Shown: one piece after another, positions 10,863 through 49,129 of the stretch
Layout: each line of letters begins with the position of its first letter
Position numbering within the stretch: the first letter of the stretch is position 1
Source of the DNA: Endomicrobiia bacterium
Lineage (GTDB): Bacteria; Elusimicrobiota; Endomicrobiia; DTEH01
DNA length: 64,000 bases
Reading direction: 5' to 3'
Assembly (NCBI GenBank): GCA_039630545.1
Contig: JBCNUU010000005.1
Span: 71,474 to 135,473 of the forward strand
The notes under the pieces: model-generated
Told to the model about the DNA's origin: nothing
Database searches by the model: none
What the model saw: the letters and a program-made list of their open reading frames with translations, nothing else
Position numbers and translations under genes: made by a program

Positions 10863-10934
10863 TGCCCCTAGGAGGAATTGAACCTCCATACTCCCGTCCG
10901 GAGCGGGATGCTTTATCCGTTAAGCTATAGGGGC
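10863..10934 (-). tRNA. tRNA-Arg(CCG), CCA not encoded
   Basis: GCCCCTA/TAGGGGC acceptor stem, anticodon arm TCCCG-CTCCGGA-CGGGA, T-loop GTTCAATTC. Confidence 0.95.
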
Positions 10935-40983: not shown

Positions 40984-43248
40984 TTAAAATATCTGACCTA
41001 AAGTAAACCAAAATTGAAGTGGATCTTTGCCTTTTTGAGGGTTTAATGCCCATGACCAGTCTAACCTGATAGGAAAAACAGGTGTAGTAAATCTTATACC
41101 AATTCCTATAGAATGTTTTAATTTGTTATCCCATATTCCTTCGTCTTCCCATTTTTGTGTAGCACCTATATTAAGATCAATTTCTTCAAGTTCATTCCAC
41201 GCTCCACCAACATCATAAAACAAAGCTCCTTGTAATACGGTTCTGTTGTTCTCCTGCACTATTGGAAATTTATATTCCAAATTAAAAACACCCATAAACC
41301 TTCCACCATTTTCTGGTGCAAGTGTTCTATAACCATATCCTCTTACTGTCTCTGCTCCACCAACATAGAACTTTTCATATTTTACATTGTCTAAATTGAA
41401 GTTATCTATGCCTTCTATATAACCCAGAGTTAAATTAAAAGATAAAACAAATTTCCAGAAAGTTGGAATAAACAAAGAAGAGCGAAAAATTGGTTTATAG
41501 AATTTCACATCTCCGGATAATGGTCCCCAACCAGCTATTTGTATTAAAAGAGACTGTCTTGTTCCTTTTGCAGGATCAAATATATTGTCTCTTGTATCAT
41601 ATATAACTTGTGAAGCAAAGCTTGAAGTTAATTTTTTACCTTCTGGTATTTCTTGTGGAAATTTACTATCAAATATGATAACATTTTCATAAGAATAAGA
41701 AAATAAAAGAGCAAAAGTATCAGATATTCTTGGTCCTATTTTAAACTCCAAACCTTGTCTTTCTTCTTTGTAAGCATTTATCTCCTGTGCGTATTCTCTT
41801 AAACGAGTTAGATCATATAAAGATATTCCAAAAGACATTGGTTTTTTTAAAAACCATGGTTCTGTCCAGGAAATTTCGTAGTTTTTTCTTCTTTCTCCGA
41901 ACTCCCATAATAGATTTAATCTCTGAGCTCTTCCAAATAAGTTAAGATGTGATACTTGAAGATTACCAACTAATTTATCAACAGTAGAATATCCAGCACC
42001 CGCTGATAACATTCCTGGTCTTCCCTCTGTTATTGTCAGGACTAAGTCTACACTATTTAATGTGCTGCCTGGTTGAAGGTCTATTTTAATATCATCTATA
42101 AAACCTAAATTGTAAATTTTTTCTATACTTCTTCTAAGTTTTTTACTGTTAAAAATATCCCCTTCTTTTAATATAATTTCTCGTTTTATAACCTCCTCTT
42201 TAGTAGACGAAAGACCTTCTATCCATATTTTATCTACATAGAATTGTTCTCCCTCTTCAATTTTAAATTTCAAAGTAATAGACAAATTAGAGGGATTTTT
42301 AATAATTTCTGGTGTAACAGTTATTTTTAAAAAACCTTTCTCTCCATATAACTCTGAAATACTCTGGATGGAGTTATCCAGTGCTGATTGGTTATAGTAG
42401 TCATTTGTTTTAATTTTTATTACTTTTAAAATTTGTTTATCAGTGTAAACCTTGTTGCCTTCAAAGAAAATTTTATTTATTTTGTATTTAGCACCTTCAT
42501 ATATAGTTAAAGTAATATTAACTTTTTGTTGCTCTTCATTAAACACTATAGTAGTGGTAGATATGTTTATATCGTAAAACCCAAGGTCTTTATAATGTTG
42601 TTGAATCTTTTTAATATCTTCATTTAGTTTAGATTCCTTAAAAGGTTTTTTCTTTTTAGTTTCCATTAAAGATAAAATTTTTCTTTTAGATACATGTTTG
42701 TTGCCAATAAGTTCTACTTTTTCTACGGTTACTTTTTTGCCTTCATTAATGAGAAAAATAATAGTCATTTGATTTAAGTCTATATTTATAATTTCTTCTG
42801 TTTTTATAGTTGTATACGCAAACCCTTTTTCATCATAAAGTTGTAAAATTTTGTCTTTACTTTCCTGGAGTTTTGAGTCAATAAAATAAGATTTTTCTTT
42901 TAAAGGTATTTCTTCTTTAATTTTTCCAGTTGAAATTTTTGTGTTTCCTCTTATTTCTATTTTTTTAATATAAGGTCTTTCATAAAATTTAAAGGTGAGT
43001 TTTTTAGTAGAGGTATCAAAGTTTACTTCTACATTATCAAAATATTCCGTTGCAAGAAGTTCTTTTACATCCTCTGATATGTTTTCTGTTGAAAAAAAAC
43101 TTCCTTTTTTTGTTTTTATTTTTGTTTTTATTTCTGATTCTTTGACATTTTTTAGTCCAATGAATTCAACTTCTAAAATTTTCTGCGAAGATAATAAGAT
43201 TCTAACTCCTAATAGTAAAAAAATTATTATAAAAAACTTTTTCTTCAT
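40984..43248 (-). CDS. bamA: Outer membrane protein assembly factor BamA
   Basis: POTRA repeats, NLFGRAQ, GGAETVRGY, C-terminal FTLGQIF. Confidence 0.96.
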   Translation of the reverse strand: MKKKFFIIIFLLLGVRILLSSQKILEVEFIGLKNVKESEIKTKIKTKKGSFFSTENISEDVKELLATEYFDNVEVNFDTSTKKLTFKFYERPYIKKIEIRGNTKISTGKIKEEIPLKEKSYFIDSKLQESKDKILQLYDEKGFAYTTIKTEEIINIDLNQMTIIFLINEGKKVTVEKVELIGNKHVSKRKILSLMETKKKKPFKESKLNEDIKKIQQHYKDLGFYDINISTTTIVFNEEQQKVNITLTIYEGAKYKINKIFFEGNKVYTDKQILKVIKIKTNDYYNQSALDNSIQSISELYGEKGFLKITVTPEIIKNPSNLSITLKFKIEEGEQFYVDKIWIEGLSSTKEEVIKREIILKEGDIFNSKKLRRSIEKIYNLGFIDDIKIDLQPGSTLNSVDLVLTITEGRPGMLSAGAGYSTVDKLVGNLQVSHLNLFGRAQRLNLLWEFGERRKNYEISWTEPWFLKKPMSFGISLYDLTRLREYAQEINAYKEERQGLEFKIGPRISDTFALLFSYSYENVIIFDSKFPQEIPEGKKLTSSFASQVIYDTRDNIFDPAKGTRQSLLIQIAGWGPLSGDVKFYKPIFRSSLFIPTFWKFVLSFNLTLGYIEGIDNFNLDNVKYEKFYVGGAETVRGYGYRTLAPENGGRFMGVFNLEYKFPIVQENNRTVLQGALFYDVGGAWNELEEIDLNIGATQKWEDEGIWDNKLKHSIGIGIRFTTPVFPIRLDWSWALNPQKGKDPLQFWFTLGQIF

Positions 43249-43358: not shown

Positions 43359-43431
43359 TGGGCGCGGAGGGATTCGAACCCCCGACCAACGGATTATGAG
43401 TCCGCCGCTCTGCCAGCTGAGCTACGCGCCC
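43359..43431 (-). tRNA. tRNA with CAT anticodon, probably tRNA-Ile2 (lysidine); elongator Met not excluded
   Basis: GGGCGCG/CGCGCCC acceptor stem, anticodon arm GCGGA-CTCATAA-TCCGT, GTTCGAATC; paired 1:72 so not initiator; CCA not encoded. Confidence 0.9.
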
Positions 43432-43513: not shown

Positions 43514-44920
43514 TTATTCTTTAGTTCTAATTGTTTTTTTCCACTCTATGTTATTGCCTAAAAATGAAATCAAAAATCCATAAGTATAAGGTAAGGTGCC
43601 AAGAGCTGCAGCGATGGGCATTAATAAAAAAGTAAGATACTCTAAAATAAATTTATATTTTTTCTCACCATTTTCGATAATATAAATTTTTTTCACAGTA
43701 TAGTTAAAATAATATATTAAAAAACCCATGTAGCTTATATTCATTATAAAAAGCAATATCCTTGTGTAGGAAGGTAAAAATTCAAAAAAATGTGATAAGC
43801 CAGATAAAGAAAGAATTAGCATTCCAACTGTTGTAATTGCTAAAATTTGTGCTGCAAACCAAGGAAGAATTCCATAAAATATTAACATAAGAGAGATGAG
43901 AAATCTTTTTTTAATGAAAGTTTTCTTAAGCAACATTTCTTTAAGAACCTGAATATATCCAGAAGCCCATCTTGTTCTCTGATGAAAAAATGCTTTATAA
44001 GTAGGAGGTGTTTGTTCTGTTGTAATATATGGCATAAATTCTGGCCAGGTATCTGTTTCTACAAATAGTCTGCAGCCTAATTCTAAATCTTCAGAAAGAG
44101 CATTTTTGTTAAACCCTCTTACTTTGTATAGTAAATGTGGTTCAATAAAGAAATTAGTCCCACCAATGAAGGGTAAATATACTAGTAAAGCTGGTAGATA
44201 CCACTCATGAGTAATTGCCTGGGCTATAGCGTAGATTTTGTTAAAGACTCCTAAATGAGCATAATTTCTTACCTGAACCACAGGACCCTGCAAAAGAAGG
44301 TGTGTATCAGGTTTTTTTGTTAAATATTTGTAAGCTACATAAAGCAATACATCTTTTTCAGGAGCAGCATCAGCATCATAAAAACCTACAATATCTGTAA
44401 AGTTTGGTATAAAATTAAGTCCCCAATTCAAAGCTCTTGGTTTTGTTGAGTTTGTTGGAGTAGATAATATTTTGCCTTTATATTCACCATCATATCCAAT
44501 TGGTATTGAAACATAGCTGATTATTTCTCTTTTGTAAAGATCATTGTAATATTTTTGTTTGAGTTGTACAATAAAATGAGTAGTTTGGTCAAATGGTTTT
44601 GTAAGAAGTTCTTTGTCATCCAAAATTATAATTATATTTAATTTTTCTTTAGGATAATTCAATGATATAAATCGGTCAATTGTAGTTCCAATTATTTCTT
44701 GTTCATCTTTAGCAGGTATTATAATAGTTATATGTGGTAAAGCTTTGTTAAGGATACTGGCTAAATTTTTTAATTTGTCTAGGGTAAGATTAAATTTTTT
44801 TTTCTGCCGGAAGTAATATAGATACGAGAATATACCATATACTATAACTTGAAAAAAGAAAAAAATTATTATTCCATTAGCTACAAGCAAAATTTTTACG
44901 AATATATTTACCAAATCCAT
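43514..44920 (-). CDS. GT2 membrane glycosyltransferase (cellulose-synthase-like motifs)
   Basis: TKPRALN, YDAD, SEDLELG, QRTRW (QxxRW), N- and C-terminal TMs. Confidence 0.9.
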   Translation of the reverse strand: MDLVNIFVKILLVANGIIIFFFFQVIVYGIFSYLYYFRQKKKFNLTLDKLKNLASILNKALPHITIIIPAKDEQEIIGTTIDRFISLNYPKEKLNIIIILDDKELLTKPFDQTTHFIVQLKQKYYNDLYKREIISYVSIPIGYDGEYKGKILSTPTNSTKPRALNWGLNFIPNFTDIVGFYDADAAPEKDVLLYVAYKYLTKKPDTHLLLQGPVVQVRNYAHLGVFNKIYAIAQAITHEWYLPALLVYLPFIGGTNFFIEPHLLYKVRGFNKNALSEDLELGCRLFVETDTWPEFMPYITTEQTPPTYKAFFHQRTRWASGYIQVLKEMLLKKTFIKKRFLISLMLIFYGILPWFAAQILAITTVGMLILSLSGLSHFFEFLPSYTRILLFIMNISYMGFLIYYFNYTVKKIYIIENGEKKYKFILEYLTFLLMPIAAALGTLPYTYGFLISFLGNNIEWKKTIRTKE

Positions 44921-44932
44921 AAAAACAATAAA

Positions 44933-45296
44933 TGGAGGTGGCGGGAATCGAACCCGCGTCCAGAAAGCGAAATAACTCTGCTCTACAAGTTTAGTCTATT
45001 TTTTGGATAAATAGACAAACCTGGTATGTAGTTTTTCGGTATTAACCGGCATACCAACCAGTTAATACCTAGTTTCCATTGAGTTTCTTCCACATAGCTG
45101 GAAACTACTATGTGGAAAAAGCCTGTATCCTTCATCCCGCAAATACAGGCATTTTTGCGGGATATAGCTGCTTAATTATGCAGCGTATGCATAAGTGTTT
45201 GCACTTATATTTAGCCGATTTTTATAGTGGCCCTTCGGCTAACCACTACTTGCGCAGAAGTTATTTCTTGCTTTCTGTCGAGCCCAAATCACCCCC
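44933..45296 (-). ncRNA. ssrA: tmRNA, tag peptide (A)ANTYAYAA
   Basis: 5' GGGGGTGA..GGCTCGAC, 3' GACGCGGGTTCGATTCCCGCCACCTCCA; G3.U wobble in acceptor stem; P2 complementarity; tag ORF 45202-45176 after ATAAGT. Confidence 0.96.
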
Positions 45297-45762
45297 CCTT
45301 TTTTCTTAATTTTTTAAAAAACTTTTTTAATAAATTTTGTGATTTTTCTTTGCAAAGTCCTGTATAAGTTTCTACTTGGTGATTTAATTTTTTATTATTT
45401 ACAATATTTAAAACACTTTTGCAACATCCAGATTTAGGATCTTCTGTTGCATAAAATAATTTTTTTATTCTTGCATAAACTATAGCACCAGCACACATAG
45501 CACACGGTTCTAAAGTAACATAAAGTTCACACTCATTTAATCTATAGTTATCTAATATTTTAGATGCCTTTTTTATAGCTAAAATTTCAGCATGTGCAGT
45601 TGGATCTCTTAAACTGATGTTTAGGTTATGCGCTCTGGAAATTATTTTGTTGTTTAAAACTATTACAGCGCCAACCGGAACTTCATTTTTTTTATAGGCT
45701 TTTTTTGCTTCTTTAAGAGCTTCTAACATAAAGACTTTTTGTAGTTTGGTGTAATTACTCAT
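45289..45762 (-). CDS. tadA: tRNA adenosine(34) deaminase
   Basis: EVPVGAV, PTAHAEI, YVTLEPCAMCAGAI, DPKSG, FFKKLR; stop TGA overlaps ssrA. Confidence 0.95.
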   Translation of the reverse strand: MSNYTKLQKVFMLEALKEAKKAYKKNEVPVGAVIVLNNKIISRAHNLNISLRDPTAHAEILAIKKASKILDNYRLNECELYVTLEPCAMCAGAIVYARIKKLFYATEDPKSGCCKSVLNIVNNKKLNHQVETYTGLCKEKSQNLLKKFFKKLRKKGG

Positions 45763-46420
45763 AGAATATTTTTCCATCTTTTAAACTAATTACTTTATCA
45801 CCATACTTGATTAAGGAAAGGTTATGAGTAGCTATTACGAAAGAAATATTATATAAATTTCTAAGTTCTTTTATTAGGGATATTACAATTTTTGCATTTT
45901 CTTGATCTAGATTGCCTGTAGGTTCATCTGCTATTACTAACTTAGGTCTGTTTGCTAAAGCCCTTGCTAAAGAAGCTCTTTGTTGTTCTCCTCCAGAAAT
46001 TTCGTATGGATATCTGTTTAATATATGTTCTATACCTAAGATCTTTATACACTCTTTTATATACTCATCTAATTCTAAAATAATTTTTTTATTTTTTGCC
46101 CAAATAGGCAAAAGTATGTTTTCTTTTATAGTTAAATTTTCAATCAAATAATGGTACTGAAACATAAATCCTATATTGTAAAGCCTTATTTTTTCCAGAT
46201 TGTTGTGATTTTGCTCAGACAGTTTTAAAATTACTTCTCCTTTTGTAGGTTTGTCCATAAGTCCTATTATATGCAACAAAGTAGACTTTCCTACTCCGGA
46301 TGGTCCACAAACAAATAGTATAGTATTTTTAAGAATACTTAAAGATACATCTTCTAATACCCAGTGAGTAGAGTCTTTGTATTTCTTATAAATATTTTTT
46401 AATATAACTAATTCATCCAT
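45755..46420 (-). CDS. lolD: Lipoprotein-releasing ABC ATPase LolD-like
   Basis: GPSGVGKST, SGGEQQR, ADEPTGNLD; follows lolC/E. Confidence 0.85.
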   Translation of the reverse strand: MDELVILKNIYKKYKDSTHWVLEDVSLSILKNTILFVCGPSGVGKSTLLHIIGLMDKPTKGEVILKLSEQNHNNLEKIRLYNIGFMFQYHYLIENLTIKENILLPIWAKNKKIILELDEYIKECIKILGIEHILNRYPYEISGGEQQRASLARALANRPKLVIADEPTGNLDQENAKIVISLIKELRNLYNISFVIATHNLSLIKYGDKVISLKDGKIFYE

Positions 46421-47624
46421 ATCTTATAATTTCCACAGGATCGAACTGTGAAATTTTATATGCAGGATAAATTGATGCTAAAATACCTACTACTATAGCT
46501 ATAAATAAGGTTAAAATAATATCAGGAATTGAAAAATATACAGGGATTTTATCTATGTAGTAAACTTCTTTAGGAAGTTTTACGAATTGATATTGTTTTA
46601 TTAAAATTCCTAAAATAAATCCTAGTATACATCCTAGAAAAATTCCTGACAGGTTTATTATCATTCCCTGCGTAAAGAATATCTTTTTTATGTCTTTTTT
46701 GTCTATCCCGATAGCCATAAGTATTCCTATGTCTTTACTTTTTTGTATTCCTTTAAGCAATAAATTGTTCATGATTATAAAACATGCAACAACAATAACT
46801 AAACTTACTATGATTATCATCATAATTTTTTCAAGTTTTAACGCTGTAAATAAATTATAATTCATTTCAATCCAAGAAATTACTTTATAGAAAGGACCAA
46901 AATCTTTTCTTAAGAGTTCAGTTATTTCTTCTAAATTATTTTCGTGTTTTATTTTTATACCAACTCCAATTACTCCATTAAATTGATTTGTGGTTTCATC
47001 ATAGAATATTTCTTTTGCTTTATTGTAATCTATTAAGCATAAGTTGTTATCGTACTCAAAAATACCAGAACTCAAAATACCTTTTACTATAAATTTTTCT
47101 GTTAAAGGAAGTATTCCAAAAGGAGTTTTAATCTGTGTCGGTAATATCATTACTATTTCATCACCACTTTGTGCCTGAAGATTTTTGGCTAACTCTTTGC
47201 CTAGAATTATATAATTTTTTTCTAATAAAAAAGGATCTGTTTCTAATTTTATTATTTTTTCTAAGTTTACTATGCGTTTTTCATTTTCATAATCTATACC
47301 TTTTACTACACTGCTTATTACTTTGTCATTTAACTTTAAAATTGCCTGACTATAAATGAAAGGAGAAAAATTTTGAATGTATTTGTTAGCTTTTAAAAAC
47401 TCTATTGGAATGTTAATTTTAGAGGTAACTATAATATGTGGATAAAGAGAAGTTAATCTGTTTTTAATTTCTCTGTGAAAACCACTCATAACAGAAAGTG
47501 TCACGATTAAAGTACATACTCCTATGGCTATCCCACTTATAGAGATAAATAAAGATAAATAAGAGAAAAATTTGTCTTTTTGAGGCTTTAAATATCTAAG
47601 TGCAAGAAAAACAACAAATTTCAT
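46413..47624 (-). CDS. lolC: Lipoprotein-releasing ABC permease LolC/E
   Basis: GIAIGV..LSVMSGF, LFTALKLEK, EVYYID, SIYPA. Confidence 0.9.
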   Translation of the reverse strand: MKFVVFLALRYLKPQKDKFFSYLSLFISISGIAIGVCTLIVTLSVMSGFHREIKNRLTSLYPHIIVTSKINIPIEFLKANKYIQNFSPFIYSQAILKLNDKVISSVVKGIDYENEKRIVNLEKIIKLETDPFLLEKNYIILGKELAKNLQAQSGDEIVMILPTQIKTPFGILPLTEKFIVKGILSSGIFEYDNNLCLIDYNKAKEIFYDETTNQFNGVIGVGIKIKHENNLEEITELLRKDFGPFYKVISWIEMNYNLFTALKLEKIMMIIIVSLVIVVACFIIMNNLLLKGIQKSKDIGILMAIGIDKKDIKKIFFTQGMIINLSGIFLGCILGFILGILIKQYQFVKLPKEVYYIDKIPVYFSIPDIILTLFIAIVVGILASIYPAYKISQFDPVEIIRYG

Positions 47625-49129
47625 TTTATAGATCTAAGTAGTGGAAATAAAATTACTTCTCTTATAGAATCAGTGTTTGTTAAAATCATACACAACCTAT
47701 CGATACCTATTCCTAATCCTCCTGTAGGAGGCATACCATATTCCAAAGCAGTAATGAATTCTAAATTTAAGGCCATTTTTTCTTCTTCTGTAGTTTGTTG
47801 TAAAAATCTTTCGTATTGTTCAATGGGATCGTTAAGCTCACTGTAAGCATTTGCTATTTCTTTTGTTGCTACATAAAACTCAAATCTTTCTGTCATATTT
47901 TTATTGTAAAAACTATATTTTGCTAATGGAGATAATTCTTTTGGATAATCTACTACGAATGTTGGTTGAATGAGGTTAGATTGAATATATTTTTCAAATA
48001 CGTTATCTACTAAGGTTTTTTTGGGTTTTTTAATTTTTTTGCCATCAGGCAAAGATTCGTATATTTCTATTCCTAATTTTTCATAAGTTTCGTCAGAAAT
48101 TTTGTCTTCTATAAAATCTTTTAGAGGTATTTTTACATATCTATCAAAAAGATCCTCAAGAGAAAATTTTTGAAAATTATTAATTTGGATTACATATCTG
48201 TTATCCCCATCGCAATACTCTAGTTTGTCTTTACAATCTACTGCCTCACAGCATTTTAAAAAAATTTCTTTTGTCAATTCCATCATATCGTTGTAATCTG
48301 CGTATGCTTGATATATTTCTACCATTGTAAATTCTGGATTATGGTATCTATCTATACCTTCGTTTCTGAAAGACTTACCTAACTCATATATTTTTTCCAT
48401 TCCACCAACTATTAACATTTTTAAGTATAACTCAGGAGCAATTCTTAAATAAAATTCTTCTCCTAAAGCATTATGATATGTTTTAAATGGACGAGCAACA
48501 GCTCCACCTGGAAGATGTTGAATAATAGGAGTTTCTACTTCTAAGAATCCCTTTTCGTTTAAAATTTTTCTTATAGTATTTATTATTTTACTTCTTTTTA
48601 TAAAAATCTCTTTTACATTTAAATTTGTTATTATGTCTAGATATCTTTGTCTATACCTGGTTTCATGATCTTTGAGTCCATGCCATTTTTCTGGAAGAGG
48701 TCTTAGAGATTTACAAAGAAGAACAAAGTCTGTTACATTTATAGTAAGTTCTCCAGTTTTAGTTTTAAATATGTTTCCTTCTACTCCTATTATATCCCCT
48801 ATATCTATAAGTTCAACAAAAAACTCAAATTTTTCTTTTAATACATCTTTTCGTAAATATATTTGAATTTTTCCCGTAAAATCCTGAATAGTACAAAATA
48901 TACTTTTACCCATTTCCCTTCTTAAAATTATTCTACCTTTAGTTATTACAGATTTTTCTTCTACAACTTCTCCAATAGAAATATTTTTAAACTGATTTAT
49001 TAGTTCTAATATGTCGGAGGTATATTTAAAATGATTTGGGTAAGGATTTATTCCTTTTTCTAAAATTTTTTTAAGTTTTTCTTTTCTTATTTCTACTATT
49101 TGTTGTATGGGTTGAACTTTTTCATTCAT
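47621..49129 (-). CDS. lysS: Lysine--tRNA ligase (class II)
   Basis: PLPEKWHGL, RYRQRYLD, LRIAPELYLK, RNEG, YGMPPTGGLGIGIDR; start at MNEK. Confidence 0.97.
   Translation of the reverse strand: MNEKVQPIQQIVEIRKEKLKKILEKGINPYPNHFKYTSDILELINQFKNISIGEVVEEKSVITKGRIILRREMGKSIFCTIQDFTGKIQIYLRKDVLKEKFEFFVELIDIGDIIGVEGNIFKTKTGELTINVTDFVLLCKSLRPLPEKWHGLKDHETRYRQRYLDIITNLNVKEIFIKRSKIINTIRKILNEKGFLEVETPIIQHLPGGAVARPFKTYHNALGEEFYLRIAPELYLKMLIVGGMEKIYELGKSFRNEGIDRYHNPEFTMVEIYQAYADYNDMMELTKEIFLKCCEAVDCKDKLEYCDGDNRYVIQINNFQKFSLEDLFDRYVKIPLKDFIEDKISDETYEKLGIEIYESLPDGKKIKKPKKTLVDNVFEKYIQSNLIQPTFVVDYPKELSPLAKYSFYNKNMTERFEFYVATKEIANAYSELNDPIEQYERFLQQTTEEEKMALNLEFITALEYGMPPTGGLGIGIDRLCMILTNTDSIREVILFPLLRSIK

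Follow-up and report, generated by a model that had tools for sequence, protein, structure and literature searches.

A tadA stop codon within the tmRNA gene of an Endomicrobiia bacterium, probably a by-product of gene packing

When the stop codon of a protein gene lies inside the mature RNA encoded by the next gene, is the overlap a regulatory device or a by-product of tight gene packing? This question is raised by a locus of an uncultured Endomicrobiia bacterium, in which tadA runs without a spacer into ssrA, the gene for transfer-messenger RNA (tmRNA). The locus lies in a stretch of 64,000 nt of contig JBCNUU010000005.1 (positions 71,474 to 135,473), which is termed the window here and from the first nucleotide of which all plain coordinates are counted. 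The genome carrying the window (G000; other G codes denote genomes of relatives) is a metagenome-assembled genome of 1.60 Mb in 82 contigs, with a G+C content of 29.4% and with 43 tRNA and tmRNA genes, collectively t(m)RNA genes, as called by ARAGORN. The two genes overlap by 8 nt on the same strand, this overlap is real, and tadA takes as its stop codon the UGA that is nearly universal at nt 6-8 of tmRNA. Probably, the overlap is close to neutral and has resulted from extreme packing of genes at a tadA-ssrA junction that is found throughout the class.

The stop codon of tadA lies within ssrA

The coding sequence (CDS) of tadA is located at 45289..45777 on the minus strand and encodes a protein of 162 aa, as indicated by the list of open reading frames (ORFs) and by NCBIfam and Pfam matches. 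An alternative ATG is present at residue 6. The protein matches the TadA equivalog NF008113 of NCBIfam at residues 13-159 with a score of 167.2 bits, which exceeds the cut-off of 150, and the Pfam family MafB19-deam at residues 15-158 with an E-value of 1e-44. It contains the peptides DPTAHAEI and EPCAMCAG, the H-A-E and P-C-x-x-C motifs of which we take to be the zinc-binding, catalytic motifs of a deaminase. The tRNA-Arg(acg) gene, which presumably encodes the substrate of TadA, is detected by ARAGORN in the same genome at C56:90382-90455.

The ssrA gene is located at 44933..45296 on the minus strand and encodes a tmRNA of 364 nt, according to both ARAGORN and the Rfam family RF00023. The Rfam match spans 44930..45296, covers model positions 1-374 without truncation and scores 176.9 bits against a gathering score of 47. 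The 5' end of the gene is placed at 45296 by both ARAGORN and Rfam. The gene begins with GGGGGTGA and ends with CACCTCCA, and CCA is not encoded. As an earlier note on this DNA had read from the sequence, the acceptor strand GGGGGTG starts at 45296 and pairs with the 3' strand CACCTCC to form a G3.U pair. The discriminator base is A, the acceptor stem with its G3.U pair resembles that of tRNA-Ala, and the T-arm, GGGUUCGAUUCCC, fits the RF00023 consensus. A slipped register of the acceptor stem with two extra G is ruled out by the sequence, since only 5 pairs followed by a G-A mismatch are then formed. The tag reading frame, which encodes ANTYAYAA followed by a stop codon, is located at 45176..45202 on the minus strand (coding part 95-121 of the gene according to ARAGORN). 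It ends in hydrophobic residues and a stop codon, and the same tag is encoded at 11 of the 20 loci of relatives that are called by ARAGORN.

The protein tail of tadA is KKLRKKGG*, and its last codons, AAG GGG GGG TGA at 45300..45289, include the run of seven G at 45292..45298 on the minus strand. The TGA at 45291..45289 is identical with nt 6-8 of the tmRNA, so that the two genes overlap by 8 nt. The overlap, at 45289..45296 on the minus strand, consists of the TGA and the five bases of the Gly codons that precede it, which together are nt 1-8 of the tmRNA. The earlier note had stated that tadA ends with AAA AAG GGG GGG TGA, that its stop codon is tmRNA nt 6-8 and that a spacer is absent, and the ORF list, ARAGORN and Rfam all confirm this. 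Judged from the mature 5' end, the cleavage site of RNase P is predicted to be 45297/45296, within the G run. A TGA occupies tmRNA nt 6-8 at 55 of the 63 loci compared and in the Rfam consensus as well. In the genome carrying the window, TGA closes 255 of the 1013 ORFs of at least 200 aa and is therefore an ordinary stop codon; recoding of the TGA at the end of tadA is ruled out by the same count.

The junction is a homopolymer of seven G in a metagenome-assembled genome of 82 contigs, and an assembly error in this homopolymer, or a wrongly assigned 5' end of the tmRNA, could give a false overlap. The assembly error, which the earlier note had named as a result that would overturn its claim, was not found. 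The region 44700-46500 of the window was found in 3 DNA runs of one study, labelled 'hot springs metagenome', and in no RNA run, and the Logan contigs of three runs (two samples, one study) reproduce the G run with 0 differences and 0 gaps; because these runs may be the source of this DNA, the agreement is not independent. Were the run one G shorter (6 G) or longer (8 G), the frame of tadA would end at nt 36 or nt 58 of the tmRNA, again within ssrA, so that an error of one G would not abolish the overlap. The agreement of ARAGORN and Rfam on the 5' end argues against a misplaced tmRNA start, and the sister species G003 has the same junction, with an overlap of 8 nt, behind a different protein tail, RNQRG*. 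The reading of the overlap as an artefact is largely refuted by these results and is barely credible.

The junction in relatives and at other RNA genes

The genome carrying the window and 40 relatives were searched for tmRNA, which was found in 40 of these 41 genomes, and 30 loci were the first to be examined. In addition, tadA and ssrA were sought in an even sample of 151 genomes from the phylum. With 33 further junctions added, the junction statistics cover 59 loci of the class, and some counts cover 63 loci. At all of the 30 first loci, ssrA is immediately preceded by tadA on the same strand. The phylum sample shows this order in 56 of the 58 genomes of the class in which both genes were located, as compared with 4 of 62 in other classes. 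In the two exceptions within the class, G018 and G143, tadA and ssrA are located on different contigs, despite room alongside.

Conservation of the junction does not extend to the overlap. The 5' ends of the relatives' tmRNAs are Infernal coordinates at every locus; those of ARAGORN agree with them at 20 of the 30 first loci, and the other 10 are without an ARAGORN call. Measured from the tadA stop codon to tmRNA +1, the median distance is 27 nt, and 33 of the 59 class loci have distances of 30 nt or shorter. The genes overlap at 8 loci, and are separated by 0-15 nt at 15 loci, by 16-30 nt at 10, by 31-100 nt at 9 and by more than 100 nt at 17. Five of the overlaps are at -8 and use the tmRNA TGA as the stop codon (G000, G003, G019, G099 and G106). 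Two others, at -37 in G110 (L044) and at -108 in G011 (L031), arise because the tadA frame has no stop codon before ssrA, and this frame is not that of the TGA. The junction of G110 contains homopolymers of T and G, so that a sequencing error is possible there. The eighth overlap, at -126 in G151 (L058, G151:C108:362-1618), is doubtful and is not counted as firm, because the match to tmRNA scores a weak 71 bits and is probably rearranged; without it, seven overlaps are left. In G151, which has a small genome, the tmRNA match is without the usual GGGGG 5' end, and the tadA frame has lost its conserved C-terminus and continues into an apparent tmRNA tag frame (...GIAMPMAAA*). This locus may represent a deletion that fused tadA and ssrA, or an assembly fault.

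A maximum-likelihood tree was built from the tadA and ssrA DNA of 29 of the 59 loci, namely those of family f1, G019 and genera g6 and g14, with the other 30 left out. The genome carrying the window and G003 are sisters on this tree with a support of 100/100. G106 is sister to G117, which has a spacer of 2 nt, and G110 adjoins a clade with spacers of 6-10 nt. The position of G099 is not resolved, yet it falls outside the clade of G106. G019, which is on the tree, and G011, which is absent from it, belong to other families. This distribution suggests that the overlap arose independently about six times in the class. In the genus to which the window belongs, 6 of the 7 other species have their own tadA stop codon 3-218 nt upstream of ssrA, and only the sister G003 shares the overlap. 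In the relative G004, tadA stops on a TAA of its own that is located 7 nt upstream. The earlier note had proposed that its claim be checked against the conservation of the overlap in related genomes, and most species of the genus thus speak against it. Of the 51 loci at which tadA has its own stop codon, 17 have a spacer that would keep the tmRNA TGA in the tadA frame, which is the third expected by chance.

For comparison across phyla, 80 tadA loci from many phyla (L064-L143) were used. They were picked by similarity to the TadA of the window and are therefore a biased sample; no close kin is present among the 80 loci given by this TadA scan. A tmRNA gene follows tadA at none of these 80 loci. 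A tRNA gene follows tadA directly on the same strand at 24 of them, and this gene encodes Ser(CGA) in 20 cases, Ser(GGA) in 2, Ser(GCT) in 1 and Arg(CCT) in 1. The spacers between tadA and these tRNA genes are 3-140 nt long, and 3 of the 24 junctions apparently overlap, as judged from frame extension without single inspection. A tRNA gene directly precedes tadA at 8 of the 80 loci, and in 5 of these it encodes Arg(ACG) and is located 23-58 nt upstream. The tRNA neighbours in other phyla indicate that tadA is often embedded among substrates of RNase P, a place that is filled by ssrA in the class studied here. A literature search found nothing on linkage of tadA with ssrA or with tRNA-Ser, or on the flanking of tadA by tRNA genes.

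Similar junctions are present elsewhere in the genome carrying the window. At 15 of its 43 t(m)RNA genes, an ORF of at least 100 aa on the same strand ends either inside the 5' end of the RNA gene or no more than 15 nt before it. A gene for a GAF-HD protein of 359 aa (G000:C1:250473-251617) ends inside tRNA-Ala(CGC), at -11 by the ARAGORN start (-10 from the first G), and a gene for a protein of the inositol-monophosphatase family of 264 aa (G000:C45:3706-4568) ends inside tRNA-Pro(TGG) at -10. Both genes are backed by Pfam matches, lie outside the window and stop on a TAG at tRNA nt 8-10. An ORF of 112 aa that ends inside tRNA-Leu(TAG) is not counted, because it has no Pfam match. Within the window, tRNA-Arg(CCG) at 10863-10934 on the minus strand starts 4 nt past the stop codon of a same-strand ORF of 896 aa.

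Gene packing, processing and rival explanations

The genes around tadA and ssrA are tightly packed, too. A gene for a LolD-like ABC ATPase at 45755..46420 on the minus strand (ORF list; Pfam ABC_tran, 1.3e-28) overlaps the start of tadA by 23 nt, and is in turn overlapped by 8 nt by a gene for a LolC/E-like permease at 46413..47624 (minus strand; Pfam FtsX and MacB_PCD). Downstream of ssrA, all on the minus strand, are a gene for a family-2 glycosyltransferase at 43514..44920 (ORF list; Pfam Glyco_trans_2_3, 6.6e-18), tRNA-Met at 43359..43431 and bamA at 40984..43248. The ATG of the glycosyltransferase gene is located 12 nt past the 3' end of the tmRNA, so that ssrA is packed on both flanks. 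These genes belong to an array of co-directional ORFs that extends from 54070 to 37328, over more than 16 kb, almost without spacers, the ORFs being joined by overlaps or tiny gaps. The gap between the 3' end of the tmRNA and the glycosyltransferase ATG (44920-44933, minus strand) is without a Shine-Dalgarno-like sequence; if this gene shares the ssrA transcript, 3' processing of the tmRNA would leave a nearly leaderless mRNA.

The consequences of the overlap for the tadA transcript can be outlined as follows. Because the stop codon lies inside the mature tmRNA, no tadA mRNA can be full-length without the beginning of ssrA, and tadA mRNAs would necessarily run on into ssrA. Ribosomes that translate tadA before processing would stop normally at the UGA to produce TadA of 162 aa, and early ribosomes would finish before the 3' acceptor strand is made about 360 nt later. 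Transcripts that reach the 3' end of ssrA would fold the tRNA-like domain and would then be cut by RNase P at 45297/45296. This cut would leave a tadA mRNA ending in ...AAG G, as the earlier note had predicted for a co-transcript, and the geometry of the junction fits this prediction. The RNA would probably decay quickly, by analogy with E. coli secG-leuU. Leftover ribosomes would be rescued by tmRNA-SmpB, and TadA(1-160) would receive the tag AANTYAYAA and be directed to proteolysis. On balance, slightly less TadA would be produced, a loss that would be tolerated, with no dedicated regulatory circuit.

The machinery for these steps is encoded in the genome carrying the window. SmpB (174 bits), ClpP and rnpA (80 bits) are found. 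The only candidate for RNase P RNA, at G000:C1:61347-61774 (L144), spans the class A model end to end with an E-value of 6e-15, and its score of 52 bits compares with a gathering score of 100; an RNase P RNA that is divergent and rich in A+T may be encoded there.

Several points weigh against the packing explanation in this form. What is said of co-transcription, of the cleavage site, of a non-stop mRNA and of a tagged TadA is a prediction from sequence. The RNase P RNA candidate is below the Rfam gathering score. The tmRNA 5' ends of the relatives rest on Infernal, with ARAGORN agreement limited to two thirds of the first loci (20/30). The promoter consensus used for the scans described below is of E. 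coli type, so that a promoter for ssrA may lie inside tadA. Finally, retention of the overlap since the ancestor of G000 and G003, together with its repeated origins, could be read as a sign of selection.

Selection would be at work in the feedback loop that the earlier note had suggested between trans-translation capacity and A34-to-I editing: maturation of tmRNA would make tadA mRNA non-stop and thereby tune TadA and inosine-34 editing of tRNA-Arg, while ribosomes terminating on tadA would compete with folding of the acceptor stem. In favor of the loop, the junction has precisely the geometry that was described, the genome encodes rescue and processing machinery, the linkage of tadA and ssrA is class-wide, and the overlap, which both sister species have kept, is found in about six lineages. 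A true regulatory circuit based on a non-stop mRNA is also known, that of arfA, which is mentioned in the part of PMC4131195 consulted. However, the overlap is missing from 51 of the 59 class loci, including those of most species of the genus, and the spacers show no bias to the frame of the tmRNA TGA. The same type of overlap is present at two unrelated gene-to-tRNA junctions of the same genome, and apparently, from unchecked frame extension, at 3 of the 24 tadA-to-tRNA junctions of other phyla. Since each tmRNA molecule is used over and over, one non-stop mRNA per matured tmRNA would probably burden it little, and a literature search found no functional link between TadA and trans-translation, which is weak evidence. 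Because the overlap is sporadic, is without frame preference, is not specific to tadA and ssrA in this genome and has no known tie between TadA and ribosome rescue behind it, a selected feedback device is not supported, and we consider it very unlikely.

A rival that accepts packing and denies its non-stop consequence is unlikely as well, though clearly less so. It holds that tmRNA is produced almost only from a promoter hidden in tadA or lolD, and that read-through from tadA ends or decays in ssrA before the tRNA-like domain folds, so that the UGA is kept and the tadA transcript is never a substrate of RNase P. The abundance of tmRNA, which as a matter of general knowledge is normally far above that of the mRNA of a tRNA-modification enzyme, favors this rival. 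So do the many weak -10-like hexamers that are offered by A+T-rich coding sequence in a genome of this composition, and the fact that the acceptor stem needs the 3' end of ssrA, which is transcribed only later. The promoter scans may speak against it. A consensus scan of 44700-47800 gives 23 sites as compared with 17.5 expected, and no sigma-70-like site matching at least 9 of 12 positions is found on the minus strand at 45296-46453 with this E. coli-type consensus, which may not suit the phylum. No positionally consistent promoter is detected in the 120 nt upstream of ssrA at 63 loci, even where the spacer is 100-300 nt long. A match to TGGACT-18-TACAAT/TAAAAT at 7 loci of family f4 follows the coding frame of tadA and may reflect protein conservation only. 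No terminator-like site is found on the minus strand at 44700-47800, and cleavage of the E. coli secG-leuU co-transcript by RNase P is efficient (PMC2241853, as far as its consulted part goes). Another proposal is that the class lacks a separate promoter for tmRNA, which would be released by RNase P punctuation from a long mRNA with tadA always in front, that mRNA 3' ends in the genome carrying the window, where a third of the t(m)RNA genes adjoin an upstream CDS in this manner, are routinely set by tRNA excision, and that trans-translation is structurally required. We consider this proposal decidedly unlikely, more so than a hidden promoter. If it were true, the cut would remove the stop codon in several lineages and mRNA ends would be set as in mitochondria, trans-translation would have to clear built-in non-stop mRNAs, including one from the birth of tmRNA itself, and the upper limit of TadA output would be set by how much translation precedes processing relative to how much follows it.

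Known systems and significance of the junction

The logic by which an overlap with ssrA yields a non-stop mRNA is sound, and it is already published. According to the consulted sections of Hudson, Lau and Williams (2014; PMC4131195), smpB of Carsonella ruddii runs into ssrA, maturation should yield a non-stop smpB mRNA, and the overlap, which just half of the strains of Carsonella have, is termed an 'interesting feedback situation'. The locus described here resembles that case, so far as those sections describe it, in that an upstream CDS on the same strand enters ssrA, that only part of the clade shows this and that genes are strongly packed. It differs in that the gene is tadA and not smpB, so that its product is not part of trans-translation, and in that the stop codon is the conserved UGA at tmRNA nt 6-8. 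It also differs in its host, which is an uncultured bacterium with a genome of 1.6 Mb from hot springs metagenome runs and not an insect endosymbiont such as Carsonella, with a genome size of 160 kb.

The same paper surveyed 2031 bacterial genomes and, in its Table 4, gives 250 overlaps with a co-oriented upstream CDS for a total of 115,660 valid t(m)RNA genes, or about 0.2% (PMC4131195). As stated in the sections consulted, which do not mention tadA, such overlaps are proposed to be a high-frequency source of non-stop mRNA and mostly reflect few evolutionary events in close relatives (PMC4131195). The overlaps described here are like those of the survey, as reported in these sections, in that a Pfam-positive CDS is located upstream on the same strand and has its stop codon inside the mature t(m)RNA. 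Three of the 43 t(m)RNA genes of the genome carrying the window, about 7%, have Pfam-backed overlaps, which is about 30 times more than the survey average, with the reservation that the methods differ (annotated CDSs in the survey, raw ORFs here).

In E. coli secG-leuU, a single RNase P cut makes both the 5' end of the tRNA and the mRNA's 3' end, and the half-life of secG afterwards is less than 30 s (Mohanty and Kushner, PMC2241853, consulted in part). With decay as rapid as that of secG, the non-stop load at the tadA-ssrA junction would be limited. The two junctions differ in that, from what the consulted part gives, secG keeps its stop codon and 14 nt after it, whereas the predicted cut in tadA is 5 nt before the stop codon. 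In human mitochondria, excision of tRNAs sets mRNA 3' ends without a complete stop codon, and rescue factors handle non-stop complexes, according to the consulted part of PMC9674279. Polyadenylation there turns U or UA into UAA, whereas the end ...AAG G of tadA mRNA cannot be turned into a stop codon by added A, since only GAA or AAA would result; completion of the stop codon in the mitochondrial style is thereby rejected.

The textbook case of real regulation through a non-stop mRNA made by processing is arfA. Garza-Sanchez et al. reportedly found in 2011 that arfA mRNA is made non-stop by RNase III cleavage and that its product is tagged by tmRNA. The cleavage hairpin of arfA is conserved, and the logic of its loop is obvious because ArfA is a back-up rescue factor. 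In contrast, the tadA overlap is not conserved, and TadA has no known functional link with ribosome rescue.

Knowledge of TadA and of trans-translation is unchanged by these results. If the tadA-ssrA co-transcript is real, the locus would be the second natural case, after Carsonella smpB, in which the making of tmRNA destroys the stop codon of the preceding gene. The tadA and ssrA genes have been neighbours through the whole history of the class, and their junction is a class-wide marker. This class-wide junction, the flanking of tadA by tRNA genes in other phyla and the rate of overlaps in the genome carrying the window together suggest that RNase P may commonly define the ends of mRNAs in compact bacterial genomes, and that two conserved triplets, UGA at tmRNA nt 6-8 and UAG at tRNA nt 8-10, serve as accidental back-stops.

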